This document shows, one piece after another, positions 13,099-64,000 of a stretch of DNA of 64,000 bases. The stretch lies in contig OZ024753.1 in the NCBI GenBank assembly GCA_964016885.1, forward strand, positions 14,694,001 through 14,758,000, given 5' to 3'. Source of the stretch: Eledone cirrhosa. Taxonomy: Eukaryota. A program made the translations under genes and the position numbers. Each line of letters starts with the position of its first letter. Position 1 is the stretch's first letter. A model generated the notes under the pieces. That model was not told where the DNA came from and searched no databases. It worked only from the letters and a program-made list of their open reading frames with translations.

Positions 13099-13224
13099 AA
13101 AAGCTGTTTTAATGGCTGTTCTAGCAATTCGTTTTCTCATTTTTATGTGTATGTATATATATATATTTAACATAGAAATGGCTTCTACAGGACTAGAACT
13201 GTTTCATTCGGAAGAAATCATCAG

Positions 13225-13275
13225 GGCTTCCTGATGATTTCTCCCAAATGAAACAGTTCTAGTCCTGTAGAAACC
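13225..13275 (+). ncRNA. Type I hammerhead motif (family 1), back-to-back with an inverted partial copy at 13180-13224
   Basis: GGCTTC-CTGATGA-tttctcccaaat-GAAA-CAG ttctagtc CTG-TA-GAAACC (one stem I mismatch). Confidence 0.68.
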
Positions 13276-16037
13276 ATTTCTATATTAAATATTTATACTC
13301 TGCTATGTATTGAGTACCTTACTTACTGTGGTTACCCCCGACTGGACCTGGGATAAACATCTCTCTCTCTCTCACTCTCTCTATATATATATATATAGAT
13401 ATACCCCTCCAATCCCCATGCAACTCCTCCTCCCTAGCCTCAAGTCCACACTGAAAGTGGTTGTGTATGTATGTGTCATGACAAAAGCGCTCACCCCATG
13501 CTATAAAGTGGTTGTTGTTAGGAAGAACATTCAGCGATAGAAAACTTGCCAAAGAAAGGGTTAGGAGCATCCTTCATTTTATGTCAAAAGAGTACAACTT
13601 CTCCCTTGCACTTGATAGAATATATAATGAAATTGAAGCAAAATACAGACCCCTTGGCCTGTCAGAGGTCAGTAGCCCTGTTTCAGTACTGATCTGGTCT
13701 ATGTAAACCCATCCAACCCTTGCTAGCAGAGAAAACAGATATTAAACAATGATGATGATAAATATATTCACACATGCCCACACAGACATATTTAGTTTGC
13801 ATTACAAGTTAATGTGGTGTTGTTTTAACCTCTCCTCGAATGAAACAATTGTAAATATACGACTACTTTCATCCAATATATCCTTCAGTTATTTGTCTGC
13901 TGTCTTTTTGCCTATTGGACAATCCTTCTAAGGCTATCACATATATTCATAACCCTTGCATTACATATTTCAAATCATTAAAAAAAAAATTATCAAGATT
14001 TTGAAGAGATTTATCTCTTTATTAATTTGACATTTAGAGCATAACTTAACAAAGGTTCTTACATAAAATGATAGTTTCTGACTTAGGCAAAAGACTGAGA
14101 AACTTTTGGGGAGGAAAAAGTTGATTAAATCAACCGCAGTACTTTATTTTAGCGACCCTGTAAGGATGAAAAGCAAAGTTAACCTTGGCAGGATTCGGAC
14201 TCAGAATGTAAATGCCCAGAATTAATGCTTCAAAGCATCAAACGTTCTGACATAGAGTAATGATTGATGATCTTAACCCTTAACCCTTTTCATTACCATA
14301 TTTTGTATGAATGACACTACCTATGATTTTCAAATTTTTTAGGAAATTATCAAGAATTTGGAAGGATTTAATAATATAACTTTCACATTATAATGTTTAG
14401 TAAAGGGTGATGGATTGGCAGAATCAGTAGAGCATCGGACACCATGCTTTGCAGCATAGAGTTACGGTCCTTTACGTTCTGAGTTCAAATCCCGCCAAGG
14501 TTAGCTTTGTCTGTCGTCCTTATGGGGTCGATAAAGTAAAGCACCAGTAATGTACTGGGGTTGATTTAATCTACGTTCCTCTCCATTGCTGGCCTTATGC
14601 TTAAAGTAGAAACAGTTATTATATTTAGTAATATAACTTTTTCATTATTAACCCTTTAGCATTTAAACCCGCTGCATCTGTCCAAACCAGTCAGAACTGG
14701 CCACTCATACTGATGTTATGGTGTTGTTCTCAAAATAAATAACATCAAAATCTCATAGCTTTGATATTATGTGAGAGAATTATGAGATATAAAGCCTTTA
14801 CCATGAAAATATAATTGTTTCTACTTTAGGCACAAGGCCAGCAATTACCCAGTGCATTACTGGTACTTTATTTTATCGACCCCGTAAGGATGAAAGGCAA
14901 ATAATAGTATATATAATGTAATGTAAATGCTAAAGGGTTAAGTTGGTATTTGGTTTTTACATAAAATTATGATAGAAGGATTTTAGGGAAATATAAAATC
15001 CCTTTAAAATAAATAGTTTTTTTATCATAAAAAGATGTGGACTTGTGTGTATGTATGTGTGTCTGTGGAGGGGAAAATATGGACTTGTATGTGTGTGCGT
15101 GTGTGTGTGTGGAGGAGAGGATGTGGGCGTGTGTGTGTGTGTATGTGTGTGTGGAGGGGTCAATGTGGGCTTGTGTGTATGTGTGTGTGTGTGGGGGGAA
15201 GATGTGGGCTTGTGCATGTGTGCATGTACATGTGAATGAGAGAGAGTGTGTGTGTGTGTGTGTGTGCACGTCTGTGTGTGCATGTAAGTGTGTGGATATA
15301 TGTGTGAATGTGTGTGTGTGTGCGTCTGTGTGAGCATGTATGTGTGAATGAGAGAGTGTGTCTGTGTGTGCATGTGTGTGTTCGCAAGTAGATGTGTGGA
15401 TGAGAGAGTGTGTCTGTGTGCATGCAGATGTGTGAATGAGAGGGTGTGTGTGTGTGTGTGCGTGCACATATGTGTGTGCATATATGTGTGAATGAGAGTG
15501 TGTATGTGTGTGTGTGTGTGCGTGCACATATGTGTGTGCATATATGTGTGAATGAGAGTGTGTATGTGTGTGTGTGTCTGTTTGCGTATACAGATGTATT
15601 AAAACATACATGTGTACGTATGTGAGAAAAAGTGTTTTATGACAATATTTCATTATGATTTTCAAATGATTAATTGTAATATAAAAGTTAACCCTACAAC
15701 AGCAAAACCATTGCAACAAGACAGCCAATAATATGTAAAGTGAATCTAAACTATTATAAAGTAAGAAGTGCAGGACTGCGTACAGTTTATAATTTTTTAT
15801 CCCATTAGTAAAATAAGTGGTGGGTGCTATTTTTTCGTGGCGCCTACACGACCACTTTGCAGTGGAATGATAGGGACCCCAGTCCCTATAATCTTATTTC
15901 TACCGCTGAGTAAACTGGACCAATGTGAAATAAAGTGTCTTGCTCAAGGAAACAACACATCACCCGGTCCAAGAATTGAACTCACAACCTTTCGATTGCA
16001 AGCCCAATGCTCTAACCACTAAGCCATGCACCTTCAT

Positions 16038-21689: not shown

Positions 21690-22139
21690 AAACCAAAGCC
21701 CTCACTGTATTTTTGACCAAAGGAATTTTAGGCTGATAGAGGGGTTTAGAGCATGTAGGTCAATACTTATCTTTTTCCATTTCTTAGAGGGTTCTAAACC
21801 CCATTATCAGACTAACCCCATTATCAGACTAAGGGCGGTGGATTGGCAGTATCGGTAGAGGGTCGGACGCCATGCTTTCCAGCATAGTTACGTCCCTTTA
21901 CCATCTGAGTTCAAATCCCGCCGAGGTTGACTTTGCCTTTCATCCTTACGGGGTCGATAAAATAAAGTACCAGTAATGCACTGGTAATTGCTGGCCCTGT
22001 GCCTAAAGTAGAAACAATTATCAGACTAAAATTTATTTAGTCAAAAATATGGTGAGGGCTTCTGTTTCTAATTACAAACTTGCTCACTGTTTCAAAACTA
22101 ACTTACTTATATATATGTATATATATATGTGTGTGTGTG

Positions 22140-26904: not shown

Positions 26905-29389
26905 TCTCTGGAGAGATAAGACTTTTCTGTGGAGAGAGAGAGATGAGTTTTCTGTGGAGAGAGATATGACTTTTCTATGGAGAGAGATAGACTTTTCTGT
27001 GGAGAAAGAGGAGTTTTCTGTGGAGAGAGATATGACTTTTCTATGGAGAGATATAGACTTTTCTGTGGAGAGAGATAGACTTTTCTATGGAGAGATATAG
27101 ACTTTTCTATGCAGAGATATAGACTTTTCTATGGAGAGATATAGACTTTTCTATGAAGAGAGATAGACTTTTCTATGGAGGGAGATAGACTTTTCTATGG
27201 AGAGATATAGACTTTTCTGTGGAGAGAGATAGACTTTTCTATGGAGAGATATAGACTTTTCTATGGAGAGATATAGACTTTTCTATGGAGAGATATAGAC
27301 TTTTCTATGGAGAGATATAGACTTTTCTATGGAGAGATATAGACTTTTCTATGGAGAGATATAGACTTTTCTATGAAGAGAGATAGACTTTTCTATGGAG
27401 GGAGATAGACTTTTCTATGGAGAGATATAGACTTTTCTATGGAGAGATATAGACTTTTCTATGGAGAGATATAGACTTTTCTATGGAGAGATATAGACTT
27501 TTCTATGGAGAGATATAGACTTTTCTATGGAGAGATATAGACTTTTCTGTGGAGAGATATAGACTTTTCTGTGGAGAGAGATAGACTTTTCTATGGAGAG
27601 ATATAGACTTTTCTATGGAGAGATATAGACTTTTCTATGGAGAGATATAGACTTTTCTATGGAGAGATATAGACTTTTCTATGGAGAGAGATATGACTTT
27701 TCTATGGAGAGAGATAGACTTTTCTATGGAGAGAGATAGACTTTTCTATGGAGAGATATAGACTTTTCTATGGAGAGATATAGACTTTTCTATGGAGAGA
27801 GATAGACTTTTCTGTGAAGAGAGATAGACTTTTCTATGGAGAGAGATAGACTTTTCTGTGGAGAGAGAGATGTGTTTTCTGTGGAGAGAGATATGACTTT
27901 TCTATGGAGAGAGATAGACTTTTCTGTGGAGAGATATAGACTTTTCTATGGAGAGATATAGACTTTTCTATGGAGAGAGATAGACTTTTCTATGGAGAGA
28001 GATAGACTTTTCTATGGAGAGAGATAGACTTTTCTGTGGAGAGAGATATGACTTTTCTATGGAGAGATATAGACTTTTCTGTGGAGAGAGATATGACTTT
28101 TCTATGGAGAGATATAGACTTTTCTATGAAGAGAGATAGACTTTTCTATGGAGAGAGAGATATGACTTTTCTGTGGAGAGATATAGACTTTTCTATGGAC
28201 AGATATAGACTTTTCTATGGACAGATATAGACTTTTCTATGAAGAGAGATAGACTTTTCTATGGAGAGAGATAGACTTTTCTATGGAGAGAGATAGACTT
28301 TTCTATGGAGAGATATAGACTTTTCTATGGAGAGATATAGACTTTTCTATGGAGAGAGATAGACTTTTCTATGGAGAGATATAGACTTTTCTATGGAGAG
28401 ATATAGACTTTTCTATGGAGAGAGATAGACTTTTCTGTGAAGAGAGATAGACTTTTCTATGGAGAGAGATAGACTTTTCTGTGGAGAGAGAGATGTGTTT
28501 TCTGTGGAGAGAGATATGACTTTTCTATGGAGAGAGATAGACTTTTCTGTGGAGAGATATAGACTTTTCTATGGAGAGATATAGACTTTTCTATGGAGAG
28601 AGATATGACTTTTCTGTGGAGAGAGAGATGTGTTTTCTGTGGAGAGAGAGATGTGTTTTCTGTGGAGAGAGAGATGTGTTTTCTGTGGAGAGAGATATGA
28701 CTTTTCTATGGAGAGAGATAGACTTTTCTGTGGAGAGATATAGACTTTTCTATGGAGAGATATAGACTTTTCTATGGAGAGAGATATGACTTTTCTGTGG
28801 AGAGAGAGATGTGTTTTCTGTGGAGAGAGAGATGTGTTTTCTGTGGAGAGAGAGATGTGTTTTCTGTGGAGAGAGATATGACTTTTCTATGGAGAGATAT
28901 AGACTTTTCTATGGAGAGAGATATGACTTTTCTATGGAGAGATATAGACTTTTCTGTGGAGAGAGATATGACTTTTCTATGGAGAGATATGACTTTTCTG
29001 TGGAGAGAGATAGACTTTTCTATGGAGAGAGAGATGTGTTTTCTGTGGAGAAAGATATGACTTTTCTATGAAGAGAGATATGACTTTTCTGTGGAGAGAT
29101 ATTGACTTTTCTATGGACAGATATAAACTTTTCTATGGACAGATATAGACTTTTCTATGAAGAGAGATAGACTTTTCTATGGAGAGAGATAGACTTTTCT
29201 ATGGAGAGATATAAACTTTTCTATGGAGAGAGATAGACTTTTCTATGGAGAGAGATAGACTTTTCTATGAAGAGAGATAGACTTTTCTATGGAGAGAGAT
29301 AGACTTTTCTATGGAGAGAGATAGACTTTTCTATGGAGAGAGATAGACTTTTCTATGGAGAGAGATAGACTTTTCTGTGGAGAGATATA
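26905..29389. repeat. 2.5-kb 22-bp minisatellite AGACTTTTCTATGGAGAGATAT
   Basis: Direct tandem reading, roughly 110 units. Confidence 0.96.
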
Positions 29390-29842: not shown

Positions 29843-31410
29843 ACATCATCATCATCACCGTTTTACATCCATTCTTTCACGCTAGCATGACTAAGATGGG
29901 TTGTCCTGTTGTGAGCAGTGTCCAGTGGGCTAACCTTGTCTTGCTCATACAGGGAACTGATTCTGACTTGATTTCTACAGCTGGATGCCCTTCCTAACAC
30001 CAACCAGTTTACAGTGAGTGCTTTTTTCCCGTGGCGCCTACAGTCCACTTTACAGTGTGGGCTGGGTTTCTTTTTTGCCGTGGCACCTCCACGACCACTT
30101 TGCAGTGGGTGGGTGGGGTTTCATATTGTCTATATGCTTCAGCTTTGGCTTGTTCCTGTGGGGGTTTGGGTCTTCTGTATTACTGCGTGACGTCAGATGT
30201 CACGGTCGTGTGTCATTGCCCTTGAGAATTGGGTAAGGTCAGCCTTTATCACCTCATCTCAGGTCTTCCTTACAATTCTGTAATTCTCCTTTTTCACCCT
30301 AAATAGTTAGTTTGTGAAACACATGGCTTGCTAGTTAGGGTAATTTTGTGCCCTAAATAGTTAGATTGTACAACTCTAAATTGCCTTTTTTTAGTCATAC
30401 ACATCTTGAACGGCTTTGCTAAATTTATATTTTAATGAAAGGTCTTTTAGCTTCCAGACCTTTCTTTTCCACACCTTCCTATCTGTCTCATTCTTTCTCT
30501 TGTTTACTGAGATGTCACTAACGACTAACCTATGCTGTGGGGTACATTCTTCCCCGGGGTATGCCTTAGTATTTGACACCATCTGTCTGTCTCACTGTCT
30601 AACTAGCAGGAAGTCAATCTGGCTTATGTGCTCGCCAGATCTGTAGGTTATTAGGTGGTTGGTAGGCTTCTGGAAGTTAGTGTTGCAAATGGTTAGTGCA
30701 TTTGCATCACAAACTTCAAGAAGCCTCACTCCTTCTTCATTTCTTGAGCCGTAACCATGCCCACCATGTACCCCTGTGTATCCATCCTGGAGCTGTCCAA
30801 CATGACCAGTGAAGTCCCTTGCTATTATAACGATGTCTCCATTCTCTGTCATTGCGGCTGTTTGTAAAAGTTGCTTGTAAAAGCAGTCTTTCTCTACTTT
30901 AGCTAGGCCTGCCTGGGGAGCATAGGCAGAGATGATTGTCATTAGTCTCTTGCCTACAACTAATCTAAGCTTAATTATTCTATTACTAACTCTAACTACC
31001 TCTATTGTCTTATCGATCCATCTCTCAGCCAGTAATATGTGTTCCCGCCCCCCACCTAACCCATCATCATTACCCACCCAGAAAAGCTTATAACTACGAT
31101 GTTTGCCTGCGATTAATCTTGCAGAGGCACCTCTCCATCTCACCTCTTACATGCAGCAGACATCCACATGCCTTCTCTCCAGCATCTCCGCTATCTCACC
31201 AGATCTACCTGTGAGAGTGCCAACATTAAGTGTGGCAACTCTGAGATGCGACTTCTTGTTCTTTTTCCTGTTGTGATTGCTTGATGACGGTCGTGGGGTT
31301 CTCACACATGGCCTCACCAGCCACCCCACTACGGTGCGCAGCCCTAACATGGTTAGTGTTATTGCTGTTGACGCAGTTGTTGCGATTCTTATTTGTTGAG
31401 CTCATAATTT
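29843..31410 (-). mobile_element. Internally deleted RTE LINE (endonuclease joined to extreme 3' end)
   Basis: EN peptides (VATLNVGTLTGRSGEI, SAYAPQ, SQIDFLL) fuse near 30270 to DEVIKADLTQ, the 3' UTR and the (GAT)n tail. Confidence 0.8.
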
Positions 31411-31754
31411 TGGCATTTATTGTACTGGTTGGATGCCCTTCCTAACACCAGAACCACTTTACAGCATGGACTCGGTGCTTTTATTCGTGCCACCTGCAAT
31501 AGAGTGGTTTTCTTACTGGACTCAGGGGCCCTCTTTACCCCTTCATTTTACAGCAGGGACTGGGTGCTTTTATTTGTGCCACCATATATATATATATGTA
31601 TGTATATATATATATATGTATGTATATATATATATATATGTACATATATATATATATGTATGTATATATGTACGTATATATATATATGTATGTATATATG
31701 TATGTATATATATATATGTATGTATATATGTATGTATATATATATGTGTGTATG

Positions 31755-31787
<33 letters not shown>

Positions 31788-32133
31788 ATATATATATATG
31801 TATGTATATATATATATATGTACATATATATATATATACATACATATATATATATATATATACATACATATATATATATATATACATACATATATACATA
31901 CATATATATACATATATATATGTATGTATATATATAAATATATATATATGTATGTATATATATAAATATATATATATACATACATATATACATACATATA
32001 TATATACATACACACATATATATATACATACATATATACATACATATATATACATATATATATGTATGTATATATATATATAAATATATATATATATATG
32101 TATGTATATATATAAATATATATATATACATAC

Positions 32134-32166
<33 letters not shown>

Positions 32167-32303
32167 CATACATATATACATACATATATATATATACATA
32201 CAAATATACACATACATATATACATACATATATATATATACATACATATATACATACATATATATATATACATACATATATACATACATACATATATATA
32301 TAC

Positions 32304-32346
<43 letters not shown>

Positions 32347-32356
32347 CATATATATG

Positions 32357-33995
32357 ACAAATGGCTTGTGAGAGCTATACAAGCCATGTATAAAGAAACA
32401 GTCAGCAAGGTTAGAATTAACAACGAATATAGTGAAGAGTTAAGCGTAAAAGTTAGTGTCCATCACGGCTCTGTTCTTAGCCCCCTACTATTTATTATTG
32501 CCCTTCAGGCTATAACAGAGGAGTTCAAGACAGGCTGCCCATGGGAACTCCTATACGCAGACGACCTGACACTCATAGCGGAATCAATGACCAAACTAGA
32601 GAAGAAATTCCAAACATGGAAGCACGGCCTAGAATCAAAAGGCCTTAAAATTAACCTGGCTAAGACTAAAGTTCTAGTTTGTAGGAAAGAAAATAAGGCG
32701 GCAGTCCCTTCCGGGAAATGGTCATGCTCAGTGTGTAGGAAAGGCGTAGGTAGAAACTCCATTTTATGTCCCAAATGCAAAGTATGGGTGCATAAAAGAT
32801 GTAGTGGGATCACAGGTAAGCTAACTAAGAACATAGATTTTACATGTGGTCGGTGCTCTGGTGCAATAAGTAGCAGCAAGTGCCCACAAAATACTAGCTC
32901 TTTCAATTGCACAGAGGGTTCTATAGAAATAGTGGACAGCTTCCGTTACCTGGGTGACAAAATCAGCAGTGGGGGAGGGTGCTCTGAAAGTACAGTAGCT
33001 AGAGTCAGAACTGGATGGAAAAAGTTCAGAGAGCTTATACCACTATTAGCCACTAAAGGGTTCTCCCTAAAAATGAAAGGCAGGTTATACGATGCCTGCA
33101 TACGAACGGCAATGCTGCATCGCAGTGAGACCTGGGCATTGTGTGCAGAGGATATACGCAGACTAGAGAGGAACGAAGCTTGCATGCTCCGCTGGATGTG
33201 TAATAGTAATATACGTGAACGGCTAAGCATAAACAAACTAAGGAAAAAATTAGAAATAAGAGGGATCAGATATTGATTACTCGAGAGAAGGCTACGTTGG
33301 TATGGTCACGTGATGCGCATGAAAGACGACAGCTGTATAACAAAGTGCAGGGCAATAAAGATAGACGGTAGCCACGGAGTAGGCAGACCCAGAAAAACCT
33401 GGGACGACATGATAAATTCCGACCTCACACGCTTACACCTCTCCAAGACAATATCACTGGACCGAGACCTTTGGCGGTACTCAGTAATAGAGAAGACCCG
33501 CCTTACCTAAATATAAAGTAAAACCTACTACAGTCAGTAGGCATCTCTATCAAAACACACCCCCGTCCCACCACCCCCACCCCATCCACACCGCCCCTTT
33601 CAATGTAAAGTTATGTTGGTGTCACAACATCCAGGCCGAAACAAATAAGATCGTGTAGGTGTCACGACAAAAAAACACACAGTCCACGCTGTAAATATGG
33701 CCGTGTAGGCAACACGGTAAAAAGCTCCCAGCCCCACACTGTAAATGTGGTTGGTGTTAGGAAGGGCATCCAGCTGTAGAAAACCCGCCAGACAGTCCAC
33801 GCTGTAATGTGGCCGTGTAGGCAACACGGTAAAAACCTCCCAGCCCCACACTGTAAATGTGGTTGGTGTTAGGAAGGGCATCCAGCTGTAGAAAACCCGC
33901 CAGACAGTCCGCCTCAAGTGGGAAAACTCCCGTCCAAACCCATGCAAGCGTGGAACACAGACGCTAAACCTTGATCATGATGATGATGATGATGA
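32357..33995 (+). mobile_element. 5'-truncated PHD-RTE LINE (related subfamily)
   Basis: ORF 32368-33276 with YADD and PHD finger (32725-32856), premature stop, then 3' UTR and (GAT)n. Confidence 0.92.
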
Positions 33996-34237: not shown

Positions 34238-34986
34238 AGTGAGCAAAGGCACTGCACTCTCTTAACCAAGATGATATTTACCAAAAAGAAGAACAAGTCA
34301 ACATCATTGGACACCATCAGGGTTGCAGGTGTTATATCAGAGTTTTCCTTCTCCTAGAATTCTGCCTTGACAAAGACTAAGGGATCATCTCTCCCGGTGA
34401 TTTTGGATGGTCATTGACTCTTAAGAGCTCCTTTGCTCTTTGACAGGTTTTGTTTTTAGTCCTGCAGGATGTCCAAAGTCACCCTCCTAACCAAGAAACC
34501 TTGGTAGCGTTGCCAGTTTAGGTCGCCAACAACCTGACCATGAGACAGGTTGGACTGGGATACATGTTACCAGTAGCACCAACTGGTGACCTGATATATA
34601 TATACATACATATATATATACATATATACATATATATACATATATTATCATTATCATCATCATCATTTTACGTCCACTTTTCCCTGCTTGCAAGGGTGGG
34701 ACGGGAACTGATTCTGGCTTGATTTCTACAGCTGGATGCCCTTCCTAACACCAACCTCATTTACAGTGAGTGCTGGGTGCTTTTTTGCCGTGGCACCTCC
34801 ACGACCACTTTACAGTGGAATGATATGGCCCCCAGTCCCTATCATCTCATTTCTACAGCTGAGTAAACTGGAGCAATGTGAAATAAAGTGTCTTGCTCAA
34901 GGAAACAACACATCACCCGGGCTGAGAATTGAACTCACAATCTTTCGATTGCAAGGCCAATGCTCTAACCACTAAGCCATATGCCT

Positions 34987-35602: not shown

Positions 35603-36370
35603 AGGCTTCAAAAGGCTTCTCCCTCAAAATGAAAGGCAGACTGTATGATGCGTGTATCCGAACAGCGATGTTGCATGGTAGTGAGACCTGGGCGCTGAAG
35701 GTGGAAGACTTACGTAGATTAGAGAGAAACGAAGCCTGCATGCTCCGATGGATGTGTAATAGTAATATACGCGAACGACAAAGCATAGATGAATTGAGAG
35801 AGAGACTGAGCATAAGAGGAATCAAATGCTGTGTGCAGGAGAGGCGGGTGCGCTGGTATGGACATATGATGCGTACGAAGGATAACAGCTGCATAAAAAG
35901 GTGCAGAGCACTAGAAGTCGATGGAAACCGCGGAGTGGGGAGACCCAAGATGACCTGGGATGAGGTGATAAAAGCCGACCTTACCCAATTACACCTCTCA
36001 AAGGCGATGACACACGACCGTGACCTCTGGCATCACGCAGTAATACAGAGTACCCGACCTCCCATGGGTACAAGCTGAAGCATATAGACAATATGCCCCC
36101 ACACACCCCACTGCAAGGTGGTCGTGGAGGTGCCACGGCAAAAAAGCACCCAGCCCACACTGTAAGGTGGATGTGTAGGCACCACAAAAAAGCACCCAGC
36201 ACTCACTGTAAATGAGGTTGGTGTTAGGAAGGGCATCCAGCTGTAGAAATCAAGCCAGATCAGTTCCTGTATGAGCAAGGCATGGTCAGCCGACCAGACA
36301 CTGTCCACAACAAGACAACCCGTCTAACCCATGCTAGCGTGGAAGAACGGGTGTAAAAGGGTGATGATGA
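35603..36370 (+). mobile_element. 5'-truncated copy of the intact RTE LINE
   Basis: KGFSLKMKGRLYDACIRTAMLHGSETW...RPPMGTS is nearly identical to 59612-60079, plus the same 3' UTR. Confidence 0.95.
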
Positions 36371-38698: not shown

Positions 38699-41600
38699 CA
38701 AAAATGTAGTAAATCTTTATATACATATGTGTGTGTGTGTGTGAGTGTCTTTCTGTGTGAGTGTGTTTGCTTGTGTGTGTGTGTGTGTGTGTTTGCTTCT
38801 GTGAGTGTGTTTGCTTGTGTGTGTGTGAATGTGTTTGCTTGTGTGTGTGTGTTTGCTTGTATGTGTGTGTGTGTTTGCTTGTATGTGTGTGTGTTTGCTT
38901 GTGTGTGTGTTTACTTGTGTGTGTGTGTATGTGTGTTTACTTGTGTGTGTGTTTACTTGTGTGTGTGTGTGTGTGTGTTTACTTGTGTGTGTGTGTGTGT
39001 TTGCTTGTGTGTGTGAGTGTGTTTGCATGTGTGTGTTTTTGCTTGTATGAGTGGGTGTGTTTGCTTGTAGGTGTGTGTGTGTTTGCTTGCGTGTGTGTGT
39101 GTGTTTGCTTGTATGTGTGTGTTTGCTTGTATGAGTGTGTGTGTGACTGTGTTTGCTTGTATGTGTGTGAGTGTGTGTTTGCTTGTATGTGAGTGTGTCT
39201 ATCTATGTATCTGTATATTTATCTGTTATATTACCATATCCTCAGACCAGGGCCACTAATCTCTCTCTCACCAAATATTGCCTTTTGCTGGAGTCTGTTT
39301 GGAGTAAATTACTTGGAGTAGTTTTAAAGAATTTTATCTTGAGGGCAAAAAGATTTACATAAGATACTTAAACATTAATTTCATGTTAATGACTAATTGA
39401 AATATTTTTAATCATCAATAAACACAACCTTCCAATAATCATGTGTCTACTTTTGGCACAAGGCCAGCGATTACCCCAGTGTATTGCTGGTACTTTATTT
39501 TATCGACCTCGGTGGATCTGAACTCAGAACGTAAAGTGATGTAACTCTATGCTGTAAAGCACGGCGTACGGTACTTCCAATAATAAGTGTTTCTAATTTT
39601 GGCACAAGGCCAGCAATTACCCCAGTGTATTGCTGGTACTTTATTATATCGACCCCGTAAGGATGTTACACAAAGTTAAACTCGGCGGATTTGAGCTCAG
39701 AACGTAAAGCGACGTCACTTTATGCTGTTAAGGATGGTGTCTGACGCTCTACCAATACTGCCAACCACCGCCCAATAATAATAATAAACAAAACAGACAA
39801 ATAACTATTTATAATCCTCTCTTTATGAATATGGCAACCTTTTTAATGATGTTTTTTCCTTTAAAACAATTTCCCCTCCAGCAATGAAGCCACATTGGCA
39901 GATAGTAATGGATTAGATTCTTGAAGGATTATTTTTCTTTTACATTTGCAATTTGTGAAATTTGATGAATAATAATAATAATAATTGTTTCTACTTTTGG
40001 CACAAGGTCAGCAATTACCCAGTACATTACTGGTACTTTATTTTATCGACCCCGTAAGGATGAAAGGCAAAGTTAACCTTGGAGGGATATGTACTCAGTC
40101 TGTAAAAGGACGTAACTATGCTGCAAAGTATGGCATCCGACCCTCTTCCCATACTGCCAATCCACCTTCTGATTTAGGCAAAAGGCCAACAATTTTGGGG
40201 GACGCAAAAGGCAAATAAATCAACTCCAGTGCGTTACTGGTATTTTATTTTATCAACCACGTAAGGATGAAAGGCAAAGTTAACCTCATCATCATCATCA
40301 TCATCATTTTTACGTCCACTTTTCCCTGCTTGCAAGGGTGGGACGGGAACTGATTTTGGCTTGATTTCTACAGCTGGATGCCCTTCCTAACACCAACCTC
40401 ATTTACAGTGAGTGCTGGGTGCTTTTTTGCCATGGCACCTCCACGACCACTTTGCAGTGGAATGGTATGGACCCCAGTCCCTATCATCTCATTTCTACAG
40501 CTGAGTAAACTGGAGCAATATGAAATTTAGTGTCTTGCTCAAGGAAACAACACATCACCCGGTCTGAGAATTGAACTCACAACCTTTCGATTGCAAAGCC
40601 AATGCTCTAACCACTAAGCCATGTGCCTCCATATACTTGAATATAAGTGGAGGAATATGTGATCCCCCCCCAAAAAATCGATGGTAGAATGCAGGAGGGG
40701 TTGGGTTGTATTCAGGGTCAGTTTTTTGTTGATTTTCACCAACTTCAAATTCTACATAAATAAGGTTTGGGCATAAAATAGTGGGGTCGGCTTATATTCG
40801 AGTATGTATGGTAGTTATCTGACTAGCTTAGTCTCAAACCATGATGACACTTCCATCCAATATTAGCATGGAAAGTGATGATGATGATGATATTTATTGT
40901 GTAGAGATTCCGGTGATGGTGGAGCAGGGTAGGTTTAAAGTCTAAAGTCTGTCTCAACCCCTGAGTCTTATCAGGCTGGTGCTACCCCAGTTTCCATGGT
41001 GTTAAGCGACCAAGAGTACAAAAACCTGCCCCCCCCCCCCTAGATAGGACACCACTCCTTCACATGGTTAAACACCCAGATATTGCTGGTAATCATTTTC
41101 AGCTGAGTATACTGGAGCAACATGAAATGAAGAGTTTTGCTCAAGAACAACACACAACCCAGCCCAGGAATTGAACACACAACATTACAATTGTAAGTCC
41201 AACACCCTTACCACTAGGATAGGAGTGAGACACATTTGTAGGGAGAGAATGTTAAAATATGTCTTTCTCATTTACAGTTGAGTTTTTGTGGAGTTTTCAT
41301 GTAGGTTTCTGATTTACAGAAAAGATTTGCAATTCTTTCATTAATTTCATTAGTTTTATTTATTTTATTAGTTTTGTTAGTTTTATTTATTTTTATTAGT
41401 TTTGTTAGTTTTATTTATTTTTATTAGTTTTGTTAGTTTTATTTATTTTTATTAGTTTTGTTAGTTTTATTTATTTTTATTAGTTTTGTTAGTTTTATTT
41501 TATTTCTACAAGTTAATTGTTATTCCAATTAGTTTCAAGAAGCATACTGTGGAAGGAACAGAACTTTAACGATGAAACATTTATATATTAATTATGCGGA

Positions 41601-53295: not shown

Positions 53296-53637
53296 GGAGG
53301 CACATGGCTTAGTGGTTAGAGCATTGGCCTTGCAATCGAAAGGTTGTGAGTTCAATTCTCAGACCGGGTGATGTGTTGTTTTCTTGAGCAAGACACTTTA
53401 TTTCACATTGCTCCAGTTTACTCAGCTGTAGAAATGAGATGATAGGGACTGGGGTCCCTATCATTCCACTGCAAAGTGGTCGTGGAGGTGCCATGGCAAA
53501 AAAGCACCCAGCACTCACTGTAAATGAGGTTGGTGTTAGGAAGGGCATCCAGCTGTAGAAATCAAGCCAGAATCAGTTCCCGTCCCACCCTTGCAAGCAG
53601 GGAAAAGCAGACGTAAAATGAAATGATGATGAAATGA

Positions 53638-53809: not shown

Positions 53810-53841
<32 letters not shown>

Positions 53842-53851
53842 TTAATATATA

Positions 53852-56698
53852 TTTAAGGCTTACTACCCTGTCTTTAACCTAATTCATTCAATCTGAAAAT
53901 ATTGAAGAGATAAGACACTTTGCCATTCTTCTCTGCTAAAATGTACCACTAGAGCTGATTCAAATTTTCCCAGCCAGCCATCCACCTAATCTACGAAGGT
54001 ATTTTAGCCTACATATTGTCGTTAATATTATGATGTTCCCTGCTGTATTAGCGTTAAATTTTCCCTGCTGTATTAGCGATAAATTTTCGAGGGTTTCTCT
54101 TAGTAGCTTTTTCATGTCGTTAATATTATGATGTTCCCTGCTGTATTAGCGTTAAATTTTCCCTGCTGTATTAGCGATAAATTTTCGAGGGTTTCTCTTA
54201 GTAGCTTTTTTCATGACGTTATTATTGTTAATTTTACTGATGTAGTATTAACTTATTAACTTGGATATTTACCATGCGGTATTCTAATCCTATTGTATCT
54301 CTCTCAGTTCCTACCCCCCCCCCCCCCTCTATGCACTTCTTTAAGGCTTACTACCCTGTCTTTAACCTAATTCATTCAATCTGAAAATATTGAAGAGATA
54401 AGACACTTTGCCATTCTTCTCTGCTAAAATGTACCACTAGAGCTGATTCAAATTTTCCCAGCCAGCCATCCACCTAATCTACGAAGGTATTTTAGCCTAC
54501 ATATTGTCGTTAATATTATGATGTTCCCTGCTGTATTAGCGTTAAATTTTCCCTGCTGTATTAGCGATAAATTTTCGAGGGTTTCTCTTAGTAGCTTTTT
54601 CATGTCGTTAATATTATGATGTTCCCTGCTGTATTAGCGTTAAATTTTCCCTGCTGTATTAGCGATAAATTTTCGAGGGTTTCTCTTAGTAGCTTTTTTC
54701 ATGACGTTATTATTGTTAATTTTACTGATGTAGTATTAACTTATTAACTTGGATATTTACCATGCGGTATTCTAATCCTATTGTATCTCTCTCAGTTCCT
54801 ACCCCCCCCCCCCTCTATGCACTTCTTTAAGGCTTACTACCCTGTCTTTAACCTAATTCATTCAATCTGAAAATATTGAAGAGATAAGACACTTTGCCAT
54901 TCTTCTCTGCTAAAATGTACCACTAGAGCTGATTCAAATTTTCCCAGCCAGCCATCCACCTAATCTACGAAGGTATTTTAGCCTACATATTGTCGTTAAT
55001 ATTATGATGTTCCCTGCTGTATTAGCGTTAAATTTTCCCTGCTGTATTAGCGATAAATTTTCGAGGGTTTCTCTTAGTAGCTTTTTCATGTCGTTAATAT
55101 TATGATGTTCCCTGCTGTATTAGCGTTAAATTTTCCCTGCTGTATTAGCGATAAATTTTCGAGGGTTTCTCTTAGTAGCTTTTTTCATGACGTTATTATT
55201 GTTAATTTTACTGATGTAGTATTAACTTATTAACTTGGATATTTACCATGCGGTATTCTAATCCTATTGTATCTCTCTCAGTTCCTACCCCCCCCCCCCT
55301 CTATGCACTTCTTTAAGGCTTACTACCCTGTCTTTAACCTAATTCATTCAATCTGAAAATATTGAAGAGATAAGACACTTTGCCATTCTTCTCTGCTAAA
55401 ATGTACCACTAGAGCTGATTCAAATTTTCCCAGCCAGCCATCCACCTAATCTACGAAGGTATTTTAGCCTACATATTGTCGTTAATATTATGATGTTCCC
55501 TGCTGTATTAGCGTTAAATTTTCCCTGCTGTATTAGCGATAAATTTTCGAGGGTTTCTCTTAGTAGCTTTTTCATGTCATTAATATTATGATGTTCCCTG
55601 CTGTATTAGCGTTAAATTTTCCCTGCTGTATTAGCGATAAATTTTCGAGGGTTTCTCTTAGTAGCTTTTTTCATGACGTTATTATTGTTAATTTTACTGA
55701 TGTAGTATTAACTTATTAACTTGGATATTTACCATGCGGTATTCTAATCCTATTGTATCTCTCTCAGTTCCTACCCCCCCCCCCCCCTCTATGCACTTCT
55801 TTAAGGCTTACTACCCTGTCTTTAACCTAATTCATTCAATCTGAAAATATTGAAGAGATAAGACACTTTGCCATTCTTCTCTGCTAAAATGTACCACTAG
55901 AGCTGATTCAAATTTTCCCAGCCAGCCATCCACCTAATCTACGAAGGTATTTTAGCCTACATATTGTCGTTAATATTATGATGTTCCCTGCTGTATTAGC
56001 GTTAAATTTTCCCTGCTGTATTAGCGATAAATTTTCGAGGGTTTCTCTTAGTAGCTTTTTCATGTCGTTAATATTATGATGTTCCCTGCTGTATTAGCGT
56101 TAAATTTTCCCTGCTGTATTAGCGATAAATTTTCGAGGGTTTCTCTTAGTAGCTTTTTTCATGACGTTATTATTGTTAATTTTACTGATGTAGTATTAAC
56201 TTATTAACTTGGATATTTACCATGCGGTATTCTAATCCTATTGTATCTCTCTCAGTTCCTACCCCCCCTCTATGCACTTCTTTAAGGCTTACTACCCTGT
56301 CTTTAACCTAATTCATTCAATCTGAAAATATTGAAGAGATAAGACACTTTGCCATTCTTCTCTGCTAAAATGTACCACTAGAGCTGATTCAAATTTTCCC
56401 AGCCAGCCATCCACCTAATCTACGAAGGTATTTTAGCCTACATATTGTCGTTAATATTATGATGTTCCCTGCTGTATTAGCGTTAAATTTTCCCTGCTGT
56501 ATTAGCGATAAATTTTCGAGGGTTTCTCTTAGTAGCTTTTTCATGTCGTTAATATTATGATGTTCCCTGCTGTATTAGCGTTAAATTTTCCCTCCTGTAT
56601 TAGCGATAAATTTTCGAGGGTTTCTCTTAGTAGCTTTTTTCATGACGTTATTATTGTTAATTTTACTGATGTAGTATTAACTTGGATATTTACCATGC
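53852..56698 (+). repeat. Six tandem ~486-bp monomers, each with a 98-bp duplication containing a 25-bp duplication
   Basis: Units start TTTAAGGCTTACTACC at 53852, 54340, 54826, 55312, 55800 and 56281. They differ mainly in poly-C length; the last unit diverges at ~56698. Confidence 0.97.
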
Positions 56699-56959
56699 GA
56701 CCCTCAGTTCCTACCTCACAATTTCCCTCCCCCCCCACCCCCACACACCACCATAGTCTATTCGACCAATCAAACCTAGCATGCCATTTCCACTGCTGCT
56801 GCTGCTACTACCTGCCTAACTAACTCTCTCCTCCTCTGGCGCATCCCAACACACCCTGCCATTACCCCACCACCACTGTCCTTCTAGCCCTCAATTTTCC
56901 CACCGTTATGGATGGATGAGCTGGGAATACACGAGCAACTCTGAATCAATAGATGAAAT

Positions 56960-59900
56960 ATGAATCTGCGAGCTACCAAGCACCCACGTGAAGCGCCAAC
57001 CCAGAGACCCTCCCCTACGAGTGTCGACAAATGCCCAAAACTCCGAGTTGGTACCATCAATGTAGGCTCAATGAAAGGAAGAGCAGGAGAAATCGTAGAA
57101 ATGCTAGAGCGAAAGGAAGTTGATGTATGCTGTGTGCAAGAGACTAGATGGAGAGGAGGGTCTGCTAGAGTCCTTGTAGGAAAAAGCCAGTGCTACAAAT
57201 TTTTCTGGGTGGGAAATGACGATGGGATGGGTGGTGTAGGTATACTATTAGCTGACAAGTGGGTAGATAAAGTAATCTCAGTGTACAGGGTAAATGCAAG
57301 AATCATTAAACTCAGACTAGTCCTGAATAAGACAATTACCACAATAATATCAGCTTACGCACCCCAATCGGGGCTGCCAGACGAACTTAAGGATAGGTTT
57401 TACGAGTCCCTAATACACACTACTGCTCTAACAGACGACAAGGACTTCCTAATCATTGCAGGAGATTTTAACGGACACGTAGGTAAACACTGCGACGGCT
57501 TCAATAGAGTACATGGAGGCCATGGAGTTGGCACAAGGAATGAGGAAGGATTCAGACTTCTAGAATTCTGCGACGCCAATGACATGTCGATATGTAACAC
57601 AAACTTTAAAAAACCCGACAACCACCTGATCACCTATAGATCAGGGGAGCACTCTAGTCAGTTAGATTTTATCCTCATCAGAGGACGTGACAGATGGACG
57701 GTCGTAAACACAAAAGCCTTCCCTAGTGAGGAATGTACATCCCAACATAGCTTAGTTGTCAGCGACCTCACGGTCAGAACTAGACGAGCCCTGAAACAGA
57801 GGCCAACCTGGAGAAGAAAGATCTGGAAGCTGAAAGTCCCCTCAACCAGTAACAGATTTAAAGATATTTTACTCAACGCCTACGACAGTAAAGAAGAACA
57901 GATAGAGACATTTAACGTAGAAGAGAACTGGGAGTTCCTAAAAAATAACTTACTAGAGGCGACGGATGAGGTTTGTGGCTGGAGTAAGACCTCAAGCAGG
58001 AGGAGAGTGACTTGGTGGTGGAACAATAAGGTAGATGAAGCAGTCAAGGCCAAGAGACAGGCATGGAAAGAATGGAAGAACGGGGGGAGCAGGGTACATT
58101 ACATAGAGACCAAGAGGGAAGCTAGGCGACAAGTATACTTAGCTAGGAGGGAAGCAGAGGATAGAAAATTCAAGCATGTTTTACAACGTGAGGACCAGAA
58201 ACAGGAGGTATTCAAGATTGCGAGGCAGTGTGTCAGAGATAGTTGTGATGTCATTGGAGAGAAGTGTATCCGGAATGATAAAGGTGAGCTTGCCCTCACA
58301 AGTGCTGAGAAGAAAGATGCATGGAAGAGTCATTATGATAGATTACTAAATGAGGAGAATGCATGGGAAGAAGAGACCCTACCCCACGTAGACCCTATAG
58401 AGGGACCAGCAGTACAAGTCAGCGGCAGCGTAGTAAGTAAGGCAATCAGAGATATGAAGATAGGGAAGGCAACCGGTCCATCGGGTATAGCTGCCGAGAT
58501 GCTGAAGGCATCTGGGTCTGTAGGTCACACTATAACCACACGTATCGTTAACCAGGTAATACTAGAGGGGGCCATACCAAAAGATTGGTGCAGTAGCATC
58601 ATTGTCAACTGCTACAAAGGTAAAGGCGATGCACTAGATAGAGGAAACTATAGAGGTATAAAGTTGATGGACCAGGTCATGAAAGTAACAGAAAGAGTTA
58701 TAGCACAGCTGATTAGGGACCGGGTGAATATAGACGAGATGCAATTTGGGTTTGTTCCAGGGAAAGGCACCACTGATGCGCTCTTCCTTGTGAGGCAATT
58801 ACAGGAAAAGTACCTAGCTAAAAGTAAGCCACTCTACTTGGCATTTGTCGACCTTGAGAAAGCCTTTGACAGAGTTCCACGTGCAGTAATCTGGTGGGCT
58901 CTTAGAAAACTAGGAGTAGATGAATGGCTTGTGAAAGCGGTACAAGCCATGTATAGGGGAGCAGTCAGCAAAGTTAGGATTGGCAATGAGTATAGCGAGG
59001 AATTTAGCGTACAGGTTGGGGTCCACCAGGGCTCTGTTCTTAGCCCTCTCCTGTTCATCATAGTCCTGCAGGCAATAACGGAGGAGTTTAAGACCGGATG
59101 CCCATGGGAACTCCTGTATGCTGATGACCTCGCACTCATAGCTGAATCTATGGTAGAACTAGAGAATAAATTCCAAACCTGGAAGCAGGGACTAGAGAGA
59201 AAGGGCCTCAAAGTCAACATGACAAAGACTAAGGTCCTTATAAGTAGACGAGAAAACAGAACCCAGATCCCCTCAGGGAAATGGCCTTGCTCAGTATGTA
59301 GGAAAGGTGTAGGTAGGAACTCCATTCTTTGCCCCAAATGCAAACAATGGGTACACAAGAGATGTAGCGGGATCTCAGGAAGCTTAATTAAGAATGTAGG
59401 ATTCACATGCAGCAGCTGTGCTGAAACAGCAAGCAAACAGCCACAGGAAACAAGTACCACCAATCTCTGGGAGGGCCCTGTAGAAACAGTAGACAGCTTC
59501 TGCTACCTAGGTGACCGAATTAGCAACGGAGGTGGGTGCTCAGAAAGTACAATAACTAGGGTAAGAACGGGATGGAAGAAGTTTAGGGAACTACTACCAC
59601 TGCTAGCTGCAAAAGGCTTCTCCCTCAGAATGAAAGGCAGACTGTATGATGCGTGTATCCGAACAGCGATGTTGCATGGTAGTGAGACCTGGGCGCTGAA
59701 GGTGGAAGACTTACGTAGATTAGAGAGAAACGAAGCCTGCATGCTCCGATGGATGTGTAACAGTAATATACGTGAACGACAAAGCATAAATGAATTGAGA
59801 GAGAGACTGAGCATAAGAGGAATCAAATGCTGCGTGCAGGAGAGGCGGTTACGCTGGTATGGACATGTGATGCGTATGAAGGATGACAGCTGCATAAAAA

Positions 59901-60079
59901 GGTGCAGAGCACTAGAAGTTGATGGAAACCGCGGAGTGGGGAGACCCAAGATGACTTGGGATGAGGTGATAAAAGCCGACCTTACCCAACTACACCTCTC
60001 AAAGTCAATGACACACGACCGTGACTTCTGGCGTCACGCAGTAATACAGGGTACCCGACCTCCCATGGGTACATGCTGA
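56960..60079 (+). CDS. RTE LINE polyprotein (APE endonuclease + reverse transcriptase + PHD finger), 1039 aa
   Basis: EN motifs TINVG, VQETRW, SAYAPQ, GDFNGH, QLDFIL, SQH. RT motifs FVDLEKAFDRV, QGSVLSP, YADD, YLG. C4HC3 finger at 59288-59419. No stops. Confidence 0.96.
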   Translation: MNLRATKHPREAPTQRPSPTSVDKCPKLRVGTINVGSMKGRAGEIVEMLERKEVDVCCVQETRWRGGSARVLVGKSQCYKFFWVGNDDGMGGVGILLADKWVDKVISVYRVNARIIKLRLVLNKTITTIISAYAPQSGLPDELKDRFYESLIHTTALTDDKDFLIIAGDFNGHVGKHCDGFNRVHGGHGVGTRNEEGFRLLEFCDANDMSICNTNFKKPDNHLITYRSGEHSSQLDFILIRGRDRWTVVNTKAFPSEECTSQHSLVVSDLTVRTRRALKQRPTWRRKIWKLKVPSTSNRFKDILLNAYDSKEEQIETFNVEENWEFLKNNLLEATDEVCGWSKTSSRRRVTWWWNNKVDEAVKAKRQAWKEWKNGGSRVHYIETKREARRQVYLARREAEDRKFKHVLQREDQKQEVFKIARQCVRDSCDVIGEKCIRNDKGELALTSAEKKDAWKSHYDRLLNEENAWEEETLPHVDPIEGPAVQVSGSVVSKAIRDMKIGKATGPSGIAAEMLKASGSVGHTITTRIVNQVILEGAIPKDWCSSIIVNCYKGKGDALDRGNYRGIKLMDQVMKVTERVIAQLIRDRVNIDEMQFGFVPGKGTTDALFLVRQLQEKYLAKSKPLYLAFVDLEKAFDRVPRAVIWWALRKLGVDEWLVKAVQAMYRGAVSKVRIGNEYSEEFSVQVGVHQGSVLSPLLFIIVLQAITEEFKTGCPWELLYADDLALIAESMVELENKFQTWKQGLERKGLKVNMTKTKVLISRRENRTQIPSGKWPCSVCRKGVGRNSILCPKCKQWVHKRCSGISGSLIKNVGFTCSSCAETASKQPQETSTTNLWEGPVETVDSFCYLGDRISNGGGCSESTITRVRTGWKKFRELLPLLAAKGFSLRMKGRLYDACIRTAMLHGSETWALKVEDLRRLERNEACMLRWMCNSNIRERQSINELRERLSIRGIKCCVQERRLRWYGHVMRMKDDSCIKRCRALEVDGNRGVGRPKMTWDEVIKADLTQLHLSKSMTHDRDFWRHAVIQGTRPPMGTC

Positions 60080-60690
60080 AGCATATAAACAATATGCCCC
60101 CCCCCCCCCCCACCGCAAGGTGGTCGTGGAGGTGCCACGGCAAAAAAGCACCCAGCCCACACTGTAAAGTGGACGTGTAGGCGCCACGAAAAAGCACCCA
60201 GCACTCACTGTAAATGAGGTTGGTGTTAGGAAGGGCATCCAGCTGTAGAAATCAAGCCAGATCAGTTCCTGTATGAGCAAGGCATGGTCAGCCGACCAGA
60301 CAGTGCCCACAACAGGACAACCCGTCTAACCCATGCTAGCGTGGAAGAACGGACGTAAAACGGTGATGATGATGATGATGATGATGATTTAATATAGAAA
60401 TGGCTTCTACAGGACCAGAACTGTTTCATTTCAAGGAAATCATCACAAAAGCCCTGAAATATTTATACTCTGCTATGTTTTGAGTACCTTACTTACTGTG
60501 TTTAACCCTGATTGAAACCAGGACACACACACACACATATATATATACGTTTAAATTTGGTGGTTCACCACAGGGTAGAATTGGTAATTCTTCTATCTTA
60601 ACCAGGATATAATATTAGGAAAGCACTCAACATTACGCAACTCATTCATCTTTGATGTTGAATCACGTTGGTGGTGCGGGAACGGAGTTA

Positions 60691-60877: not shown

Positions 60878-61511
60878 ATATATAATTAATCTGAGTATGT
60901 GTTGGTCTCTCACTGACACTTCAGTATGCAAGGGGGAGCACCCGACAAAGTGCGCAGGTGGGTCTGTTTTTATATCATCTTCATCATTTTTTAGATCTGC
61001 TTTCTCTACCAGCAAGGGTTGGATGGGTTGCCATAGACCAAATCAATACTGAAGTGGGGCTGCTGATCTCCCAGATATGCCAGGAATCTGTGTCTTGCTT
61101 ATTTATGCATGACTGCGTCTTCAACTGAGTGCACACGAGAGGTTGTCATTTGTTCCATTCAACTGATGTATCCTCCCAACCCTGTGTGTCGCAAGCTTTC
61201 TATGGCTGATGTGATATATAATATATTATGTCGTGTGATATATAATATATTATTGTCATGTGCGATATATAATATATATTATTTATGATATATATAATTG
61301 TTTCTACTCTAGGCACAAGGCCAGCAATTACCCAGTGCATTACTGGTACTTTATTTTATCGACCCCGTAAGGATGAACGGCAAAGTCAACCTCGGCGGGA
61401 TTTGAACTCAGATCGTAAAGGGACGTAACTCTATGCTTCAAAGCATGGCGTCCGACCCTCCACCGATACTGCCAATCCACCATGATATATATAATATTCC
61501 CTATAATGACT

Positions 61512-62800
61512 ATAGGGAAGAGTTTAGTAATTTGGGGTCCACCAGGCTTTATTTTTAGCTCTTTACTGTTTATTATCGCCCCCAGAGTATAACAAAAGAG
61601 TTTAAAACAGGCAGCCCTATGGAATTCCTGTATGCCGATGATCTAACTCTCATAGCTGAATCTATGTCAAAACTAGAGAAAAAACACATGACCTGGAATC
61701 AAAAGGTCTTAAAGTCAACTTTACAAAGACTAAAGTCCTAGAAAGTAAAAAGGAAAACAAGGCCTAATCTCTTCTGGTAAATGGACCTGCTCTGTGTAGG
61801 AAAGGCGTGACTAGAAATTCCATCCTCTATCTCAAATGCAAACTAGAGGTACACAAGAAATGTAGCGAGATCTCAGGTAGGCTAGCAAAGAAAATAGGTT
61901 TTACCTGTGGGCATTGCACAGGAGCAGTAAGCATCAAATGCTCACAGGAAACAAGTTTTATCAAATTCATAGAGGGTTTTGAACAAGCAGTCAACAGTTT
62001 CTGTTACCTGGGTGACCAAATTAGCGGTGGAGGTGGTTATTCCAAAAGTACAGTAACCAGAGTGAGAATGGAATGAAAAAAGCTCAGGGAGCTGCTACCA
62101 CTGCTAGCTACAAAACGTTTTACCCTCAGAATGAAGGGTAGATTGTATGTGTGTATACAAATAGCAATACAGCATGGAAGTGAGACCCGGGCATTGTGTA
62201 CAGAGGACCTATGTAGATTGGAAACTAATAAAGCTTGAATGATCTCATGGATGTGAAATATACATCAATGGAAAAATTTAATGAACTGAGAAGGAAATTG
62301 GGCATAAAATGGATTAAGTGCAGTGTGCAGGAGAGAAAATTGTGCTGTTATGTTCATGTGATGCATATGAAAGAAGATAGCTGCATAAAAAAGATGCAGG
62401 GCGATCAAACTTTATGGAAGCTTTGGAGAGGGAAGACCTAGTAATGCTTGGGATGAGGTGATAAAAGCTAACCTCACACAATTTCACCTCTCAAAGTGGG
62501 TGGGTTACATGACAAAAGCACTGTCCACACCTTGTAGTGTAATCATGTAAGTGGCATGACAATAAACGCCCAGTCCACCCTGTAAAGTGGTTGTGAAGGA
62601 GTCATGACAAAAGCACCTAGTTCAACTTATAAAGGGTCATGCTGTAAATGAGGTTGGTGTTAGGAAGGGCATCCAGCCATACAAACCAGACCAGCAACAG
62701 TTCTGTATGAGCAAGACATGGTCACCTGATGTGACTTCTCTCACAGCAGGACAACTCGTCTAACCCATGCTAACATTGAAAAATGTGTATTAAACAGTGA
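61512..62800 (+). mobile_element. Old degenerate PHD-RTE LINE 3' fragment
   Basis: LYADDL, RNSILYLKCKLEVHKKC..FTCGHC, FCYLGDQIS with multiple disablements. RTE 3' UTR. Confidence 0.88.
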
Positions 62801-63029
62801 TTATACATATATATATATGTGTGTGTGTGCGCATGTGAGTGTGTATGTATGTATGTATATATATATAGATAGATATATATATATAGATATATATATATAT
62901 ATGTATATATATGTATGTATATATATATGTATATATAGATATGTATATATATATATATGTATGTATATATAGATATGTATATATAGATATGTATGTATGT
63001 ATATATAGATATGTATATATATATGTATG

Positions 63030-63567: not shown

Positions 63568-64000
63568 TTGGGGTAACATTACTTGATAGAGTGGGTAGCT
63601 CGGAGATCAGAGAGTCACACCAGGTAGAGCCACTATTTCTACAAATTGAGAGATCACAGCTCTGATACTATGGGCATGTGGTTAGAATGTCTCAGGAAAG
63701 AATCACTAGACAGGTTTGTAGCTCAGAGATCAGAGAGTCACTCCAGGTAGAGCCACTACTTCTACAAATTGAGAGATCACAGCTCTGATACTATGGACAT
63801 GTGGTTAGAATGTCTCAGGAAAGAATCACTAGATAGGTTTGTAGCTCAGAGATCAGAGAGTCACTCCAGGTAGAGCCACTACTTCTCAGAATTGAGAGAT
63901 CACAGCTCTGATACTATGGACATGTGGTTAGAATGTCTCAGGAAGGAATCACTAGATAGGTTTGTAGCTCAGAGATCAGAGAGTCACTCCAGGTAGAGCC
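63568..64000 (+). repeat. 123-bp tandem repeat derived from an Expander/Rex3-like RTE C-terminus (runs off the window)
   Basis: Units start at 63595, 63718, 63841 and 63964. Peptide SSEIRESLQVEPLLLQIERSQL*YYGHVVRM. Confidence 0.85.

Follow-up and report, generated by a model that had tools for sequence, protein, structure and literature searches.

LINEs with internal or upstream promoters shed 5′ sequence at each jump. A locus in the genome of Eledone cirrhosa raises the question of how this loss might be made good. At this locus, a probable RTE-type LINE carries a tandem array upstream of its open reading frame (ORF). Is the array a captured satellite or the element's own 5′ end, and could it hold a promoter? 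Mouse L1 offers a precedent: in the parts of that literature drawn on here, promoter monomers are lost in daughter copies and then regained (PMC10620060; PMC6454616), and daughters, which have 0.6–1.8 fewer monomers than their donors, are less active (PMC10620060). The window analysed here is the whole stretch of 64,000 nucleotides at positions 14,694,001 to 14,758,000 of the forward strand of contig OZ024753.1 (GenBank assembly GCA_964016885.1), and copies elsewhere in the genome were used for comparison.

Layout of the element

The full element lies on the forward strand of the window (Table 1). A preliminary description had counted six near-identical units of ∼486 bp placed directly 5′ of an intact endonuclease-reverse transcriptase ORF. 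Five complete units of that kind are present, distinguished from one another by nothing but the length of the poly-C tract and a single SNP. The sixth departs from them by one further SNP and is missing the 3′ spacer segment as well as an 8 bp duplication; it is therefore a terminal unit of a separate form and not another identical copy. The ORF is indeed intact, but a tether separates it from the array. Each monomer is made up of segment A, which is ∼165 bp long, a pair of 98 bp repeats with an internal 25 bp duplication, segment B, the spacer segment and the poly-C tract. Tandem Repeats Finder (TRF) agrees with the nesting of 25 bp within 98 bp within 486 bp first described, returning a period of 486, 5.8 copies and 99% matches along with the nested repeats.

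Table 1. Features of the LINE and its target site (positions within the window)
Feature	Position	Strand	Remarks
Probable RTE-type LINE, full layout		+	Array, terminal unit, tether, ORF, 3′ UTR and tail, inside a 10 bp target-site duplication
Target-site duplication, 5′ copy	53840..53849	+	ATTTAATATA, after a (TA)n run
Five complete monomers	53852..56280	+	487-type (488, 486, 486, 488, 481 bp)
Unit starts	53852, 54340, 54826, 55312, 55800, 56281	+	
3′-terminal variant monomer	56281..56713	+	433 bp; the same form closes C-type arrays genome-wide
Tether	56714..56959	+	246 bp, unique, C-rich, 52% GC, 5 ATGs; separates array and ORF
Single intact ORF	56960..60079	+	1039 aa
Protein domains	in ORF 56960..60079		AP endonuclease aa 32-266; reverse transcriptase aa 557-761; PHD finger aa 777-820
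3′ UTR	60080..60363	+	
(TGA)n tail	60364..60388	+	
Target-site duplication, 3′ copy	60387..60396	+	ATTTAATATA, runs on into the interrupted inverted-repeat element
Uninterrupted target inverted-repeat (MITE-like) element	13160..13350	.	Outside the LINE

Pfam recognizes Exo_endo_phos, RVT_1 and PHD domains in the ORF, and the element contains no second plus-strand frame of at least 150 aa. The PHD finger follows the RT core (window 59288-59419) and is also found in many of the 120 homologues listed, so it marks a wider lineage. Within the spacer segment, a stretch repeated in every unit (54278-54308 in the first) resembles what we take to be a splice-acceptor pattern, with a branch-like word, a pyrimidine tract and CAG. 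An older subfamily (described below) has CGG instead, and 5′ ends do not cluster at this site.

The target-site duplication reported around array and ORF was recovered as 10 bp on both sides, a word that includes the 9-mer noted before. When the element is removed in silico, the (TA)n run rejoins the inverted-repeat element. The rejoined flanks had been said to match the uninterrupted copy of this element: the right arm, on the minus strand, has the duplicated word without a mismatch, and the left arm is one base off within that word. Another copy, at C1:61.5 Mb, has a 7 bp target-site duplication and splits an older ORF. Among 16 copies with non-TA flanks (pair L056/L057 excluded), detectable duplications average ∼4 bp versus ∼3 bp for mismatched pairs, and most of these 16 are thus without a clear duplication. 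A (TA)n-rich flank is present in 29 of the 47 fetched copies having both ends, with several others in minisatellites, which suggests that the LINE family prefers (TA)n-rich targets. Eleven consecutive sampled copies (L125-L135, G000:C1 7.5-9.6 Mb) sit in or beside one short-period host satellite, a local insertion hotspot.

Other repeats share the window. Part of the 3′ UTR (60160-60272) is common to short dispersed repeats near 1800-1915, 34700-34817, 40340-40460 and 53467-53583, which are probably SINEs or truncated relatives moved by the LINE family. LINE remnants at 35605-36370, 30441-33500 and 61505-62804 comprise one 5′-truncated family copy of 95% identity and older related fragments of 65-76%. 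Unrelated long homogeneous tandem arrays occupy 8402-10671, 17987-21690, 26911-29389 and 63595-64000 (periods 46, 16, 22 and 123).

A LINE family with the array as its 5′ end

Exact-pattern searches of the genome counted 1598 unit junctions, 408 array-tether junctions, 1966 mid-ORF words and 5114 ORF-end words; reversed controls gave zero throughout. About 400 very young copies carry the array, which may amount to a fraction of a unit or run to as many as 61 units, in line with the variable monomer number that had been anticipated. A search with the monomer returned 210 matches (39 scored of 536 candidates), and the 150 listed fall into 23 loci. As the preliminary description had supposed, they sit at element 5′ ends: apart from the window, all 22 loci among the matches listed lead into the same element body (one without the tether, one with an internal deletion). 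On contig C1, the first 100 unit-junction matches form 33 arrays, and all 33 lead into the element. An exact tether junction lies within ∼2.1 kb downstream in 29 of these (lists compared by eye), and in the remaining 4, which were fetched, the body is intact and the junction is a variant one. Conversely, 7 of the 36 tether junctions in the same range of C1 have no listed unit junction, and all 7 have monomer sequence upstream. The array was thus mobilised together with the element, as had been proposed.

Copies selected through the ORF tell the same story from the other end. Of the first 100 mid-ORF matches, 20 lie in array-bearing copies, and the first 40 of the other 80 were fetched. An alternative 5′ UTR was rejected, as a different common 5′ end was found in none of these 40 copies without an exact tether junction (0/40). 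Their 5′ limits fall in the ORF (25) or the tether (8), or the sequence runs on into monomer sequence (7), and any DNA shared upstream is monomer-derived, host satellite or one duplicated pair. In the 40 best matches to a tether and ORF-start query (40 scored of 1784), array-derived DNA spans 25-14,443 bp (median ∼950, 8 above 5 kb), although the query included the terminal unit's last 14 bases and the copy set is biased accordingly. The tether is common to all full copies except L080, which has a deletion, and the (TGA)n tail is present in the window copy and in the fetched copies. Among 57 5′ flanks there is one common pair, a local duplication; that pair aside, no transduced host flank was seen at the 5′ end. 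Three full-length array-bearing copies (L108-L110, G000:C1 421.10-421.13 Mb) lie within 22 kb, and two of them, ∼6.8 kb apart and similar in layout, are possibly a local duplication.

The array is therefore the LINE family's own 5′ end and not a captured satellite. An independent satellite, transduced at the 5′ end as the preliminary description had allowed or serving as a LINE insertion target, would fit the satellite-sized arrays at some loci. It is already contradicted by the absence of any free array in 33/33 and 22/22 loci, by the position of the array only 5′ of the body, always closing in the same terminal unit, by the linkage of monomer type to ORF SNPs and by the homologous unit that precedes older subfamilies; we give it almost no weight. 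Nor is it at all probable that the unit numbers are an assembly artefact. The window units do differ mostly by homopolymer length, but locus-specific unit types, SNP patterns and junctions recur in >50 loci. Unit numbers are nonetheless those given by the assembly, and the exact counts of the longest arrays are exempt from this argument.

Monomer types are inherited with the ORF

Across 53 bodies, most of them picked for closeness to the window copy, the median distance from the majority is 4 substitutions in 3.7 kb, and an ORF of 1030 aa or more is retained in 45 of the 53. Their monomers come in types of ∼410 (T), 487, 509 and 607 bp, with internal expansions of the 98-mer. An ORF SNP ∼2 kb downstream of the array is carried by 16/16 T-type copies versus 1/27 C-type copies (Fisher p 6e-11; 10 copies too short to type excluded). 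Similarly, the monomer SNP C98G is found in all units of 5/5 copies carrying a second ORF SNP, and in 2/22 other C-type copies. The array is thus inherited together with the ORF. Co-inheritance is not strict, given these two C98G copies, the presence of the 487-type on two ORF haplotypes and the chimeric copy L043. The 98 bp sub-repeat also expands by itself within units (L045 on G000:C359, L037, L072 and L077), with up to 15 copies in one L037 unit and a several-kb run in L045.

An older subfamily with a short 5′ end

Older copies are ∼96-98% identical across tether and ORF, and their homologous unit is ∼320 bp long, without the 98 bp duplication. The older junction word gave 9 exact matches, all single, versus 97 old-type tether junctions, although exact words undercount diverged older copies. 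Upstream of the unit, a partial unit of 35-133 bp stops short of segment A in 7 of the 9 (one of the others is rearranged, one ambiguous). Since this subfamily has one ∼320 bp unit and a 35-133 bp overlap, long arrays look derived. Copies of intermediate age (99.0-99.5%) already bear arrays, of up to ∼15 units in L107.

Segment A has diverged far more than its surroundings. It differs from the young unit at 25/145 (L111), 23/123 (L141) and 25/130 (L146) sites, or 17-19% (L139 and L113, truncated within A, were left out), whereas fourfold ORF sites in the same copies differ at 4/175, 3/174 and 5/178, or 2-3%. Tether divergence in older copies is 4-5%. Segment A could be changing fast, or an older A could have recombined onto younger ORFs.

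Arrays also grow at the insertion site

At C2:403.8 Mb, the longest array stretches over 34,657 bp and comprises 61 units; one host satellite flanks it on both sides. In L021, L024 and L047, the 5′ junction is duplicated along with host flank. Host flank inside some duplications, together with arrays of up to 34.7 kb, indicates that arrays also grow where they have inserted. Variants recur at an 8-unit spacing in the 61-unit array and at a 6-unit spacing in L048. A higher-order repeat based on unit length alone was discarded for the 61-unit array: the periodicity of its length classes is equalled in 837 of 5000 shuffles and so is not significant. The sole sign of block duplication there is the spacing of SNPs. 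Of 24 loci whose arrays number at least three units, 4 show a segment A SNP that is private to the locus and shared by all its units, the terminal one too, and 2 have private SNPs in the terminal unit only, where private means unseen in 45 scored loci out of about 400.

These patterns bear on whether arrays might instead be built during insertion, the reverse transcriptase reaching the end of a redundant RNA, jumping back to the match in the terminal unit and recopying. The terminal redundancy of 35-133 bp in older copies would permit this, the four arrays with the terminal unit's private SNP in all units are what it predicts, and the 6-unit periodicity of L048 is in phase with the 3′ end. Even so, duplications that include host flank require a pre-existing insertion junction, a single reaction could hardly produce 34.7 kb of mixed unit types, and older copies are equally redundant yet have no long arrays. 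Construction during insertion is accordingly improbable.

A putative promoter in the monomer

The young monomer has 36% GC, 11 CpG and 10 ATGs, and it contains no GCCATnTT (YY1 site). With 10 ATGs per monomer, long transcripts would translate poorly. Young 5′ ends are ragged within the array: 54 mapped ends (one duplicate excluded, 2 ends unmapped) spread across the unit as expected from segment lengths (chi-square p 0.41), and a local cluster at 173-206 coincides with TA-rich microhomology. With no sharp peak, the truncation points of the young family do not support a single start site; in the older subfamily, 7 of 9 ends lie 35-133 bp above the junction. A ribozyme in monomer or tether was likewise rejected. 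Rfam returned four matches on 55800-57100, all below family cut-offs (best E 0.7), and neither strand of monomer or tether has a hammerhead core or HDV loop word in the form that we presume for these motifs.

We favour, with somewhat better than even confidence, a reading in which the units of the array, itself inherited with the ORF and variable in length, hold the element's putative promoter, which each jump would shorten and tandem duplication would restore. Because the array is the only conserved 5′ sequence, with no carried host flank and no ribozyme, a monomer promoter is the most economical reading. The low GC content, the missing YY1 word, the 10 ATGs per unit and the missing truncation peak count against it. 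Transcription would start inside a monomer. Target-primed reverse transcription would then copy the tether, the terminal unit and some upstream units, and would mostly stop prematurely where AT-rich sequence shares microhomology with the (TA)n target. Units could be regained in DNA through slippage or unequal exchange, since the outermost partial unit overlaps the next. In this history, an older form with one unit and a short overlap would have given rise to long arrays, the longest of which may become satellite-sized blocks, still joined to an intact element.

The array could also be a passenger. The promoter would then lie in host DNA or in the tether, and a 5′ duplication that arose by chance would expand neutrally in a genome prone to tandem duplication. 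The unit is AT-rich and without a known promoter motif, the young family has no truncation peak, and the many unrelated tandem arrays in the window make neutral growth plausible. Against this stand the lack of a 5′ transduced host flank in 57 flanks, the lack of a ribozyme to trim read-through RNA, the retention of unit and junction through older and younger subfamilies, and a segment A that evolves ∼7 times faster than fourfold ORF sites. A passenger array is on the whole unlikely, though far from negligible.

The promoter reading can be taken a step further, to a version that we consider speculative and would place well short of an even chance. The terminally redundant 5′ end of ∼1.3 units may be a one-sided, LTR-like answer to promoter loss. 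Segment A would act as an upstream promoter firing in the segment after A, and the RNA would carry the next copy of A. The overlap would let reverse transcriptase or DNA repair restore the upstream copy. The young subfamily would have lost a brake on this rebuilding, and host silencing would drive the fast evolution of segment A.

Relation to known elements

The element is probably an RTE-type LINE, a label resting on anatomy rather than on a tree with reference elements. It has the expected single ORF with AP endonuclease and RT and no ORF1, a short simple-repeat 3′ end, (TGA)n, and short target-site duplications (10 bp in the window, 7 bp at C1:61.5 Mb). The C-terminal motif of the ORF presumably resembles that of RTE/BovB. 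Naming the clade through homologues failed, as the names were uninformative: the homologues share 45-55% identity, many have the same PHD, and none carries a clade name. Comparisons with published systems draw on parts of the cited papers, including an account of RTE insertion signatures (PMC6007223).

Lepidopteran RTEs (PMC2887409) and RTE-2_OV of Octopus vulgaris (PMC9115989) likewise have one ORF with AP endonuclease and RT, a simple-repeat 3′ tail, short target-site duplications and many 5′-truncated copies. Their 5′ UTRs are plain (276 bp and ∼600 nt, respectively), unlike the array described here. The 3′ UTR with tail is ∼310 bp in the Eledone element, versus 14 bp in HmRTE-e01 (PMC2887409) and ∼600 nt in RTE-2_OV (PMC9115989). 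RTE-2_OV encodes 1109 aa with a C2H2 finger (PMC9115989), whereas the ORF here encodes 1039 aa with a PHD finger. The portions of the octopus papers PMC9115989 and PMC13282606 used here describe no 5′ array, and the word 'tandem' is absent from the main text of the former.

The closest likeness is to mouse L1Md A, Gf and Tf. As far as the cited portions go, these share variable-number 5′ tandem monomers, a tether, a truncated outermost monomer and monomer subtypes, with more monomers in younger subfamilies and rare very long arrays of 50 monomers (PMC6454616, PMC9022269, PMC10620060, PMC5381506). The monomer and tether design known from mouse LINE-1 recurs here in a retrotransposon group that is probably unrelated. 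The differences are substantial. The Eledone element has a single ORF and no ORF1, so it is not a two-ORF L1. Its monomers are AT-rich, without the CpG richness or YY1 site of mouse monomers, and the 98 and 25 bp repeats nested within them expand in their turn, with 2 to 15 or more copies in a unit. Truncation points form no sharp peak, arrays can be as long as 34.7 kb, and the promoter is putative.

Other elements have arrived at partial parallels. The A-modules of Dictyostelium TRE5-A occur in tandem, and retrozymes are tandem monomers. In the parts of the literature cited, the A-module measures 200 bp, lies in the 5′ part of the non-LTR element TRE5-A and is active as a promoter, but that element has two ORFs and targets tRNA genes (PMC3159450). 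Fungal FoTeR and MoTeR also concentrate variable tandem repeats upstream of a non-LTR RT ORF; these repeats are short and heterogeneous (∼0.4-1.4 kb in all) and belong to telomeric elements with a restriction-like endonuclease, whereas here there is one large monomer (PMC12857005). The ribozyme-headed RTE Perere-3, compared here alongside retrozymes, is an RTE with an answer to the 5′-end problem (PMC8501958), though no ribozyme match was found here. A monomer array at an RTE 5′ end was not found in the literature covered; most subscription journals, Repbase, Dfam and supplements were outside its scope.

Implications

Even in mouse L1, the mechanism by which lost tandem 5′ monomers return is described as unclear in the part of the literature cited (PMC6454616). 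A single Eledone genome holds ∼400 near-identical copies, typed variants, an older 1.3-unit form and arrays of up to 61 units, which together make the origin, loss and regrowth of such monomers readable in one genome. The family suggests that monomers of this design also evolved in a lineage that is neither L1 nor mammalian. Such 5′ ends would be collapsed in short-read assemblies and in consensus libraries. The family also provides a direct route from the 5′ end of a LINE to satellite-sized arrays. If the one-sided, LTR-like version of the promoter reading is true, every young insertion can seed a satellite.
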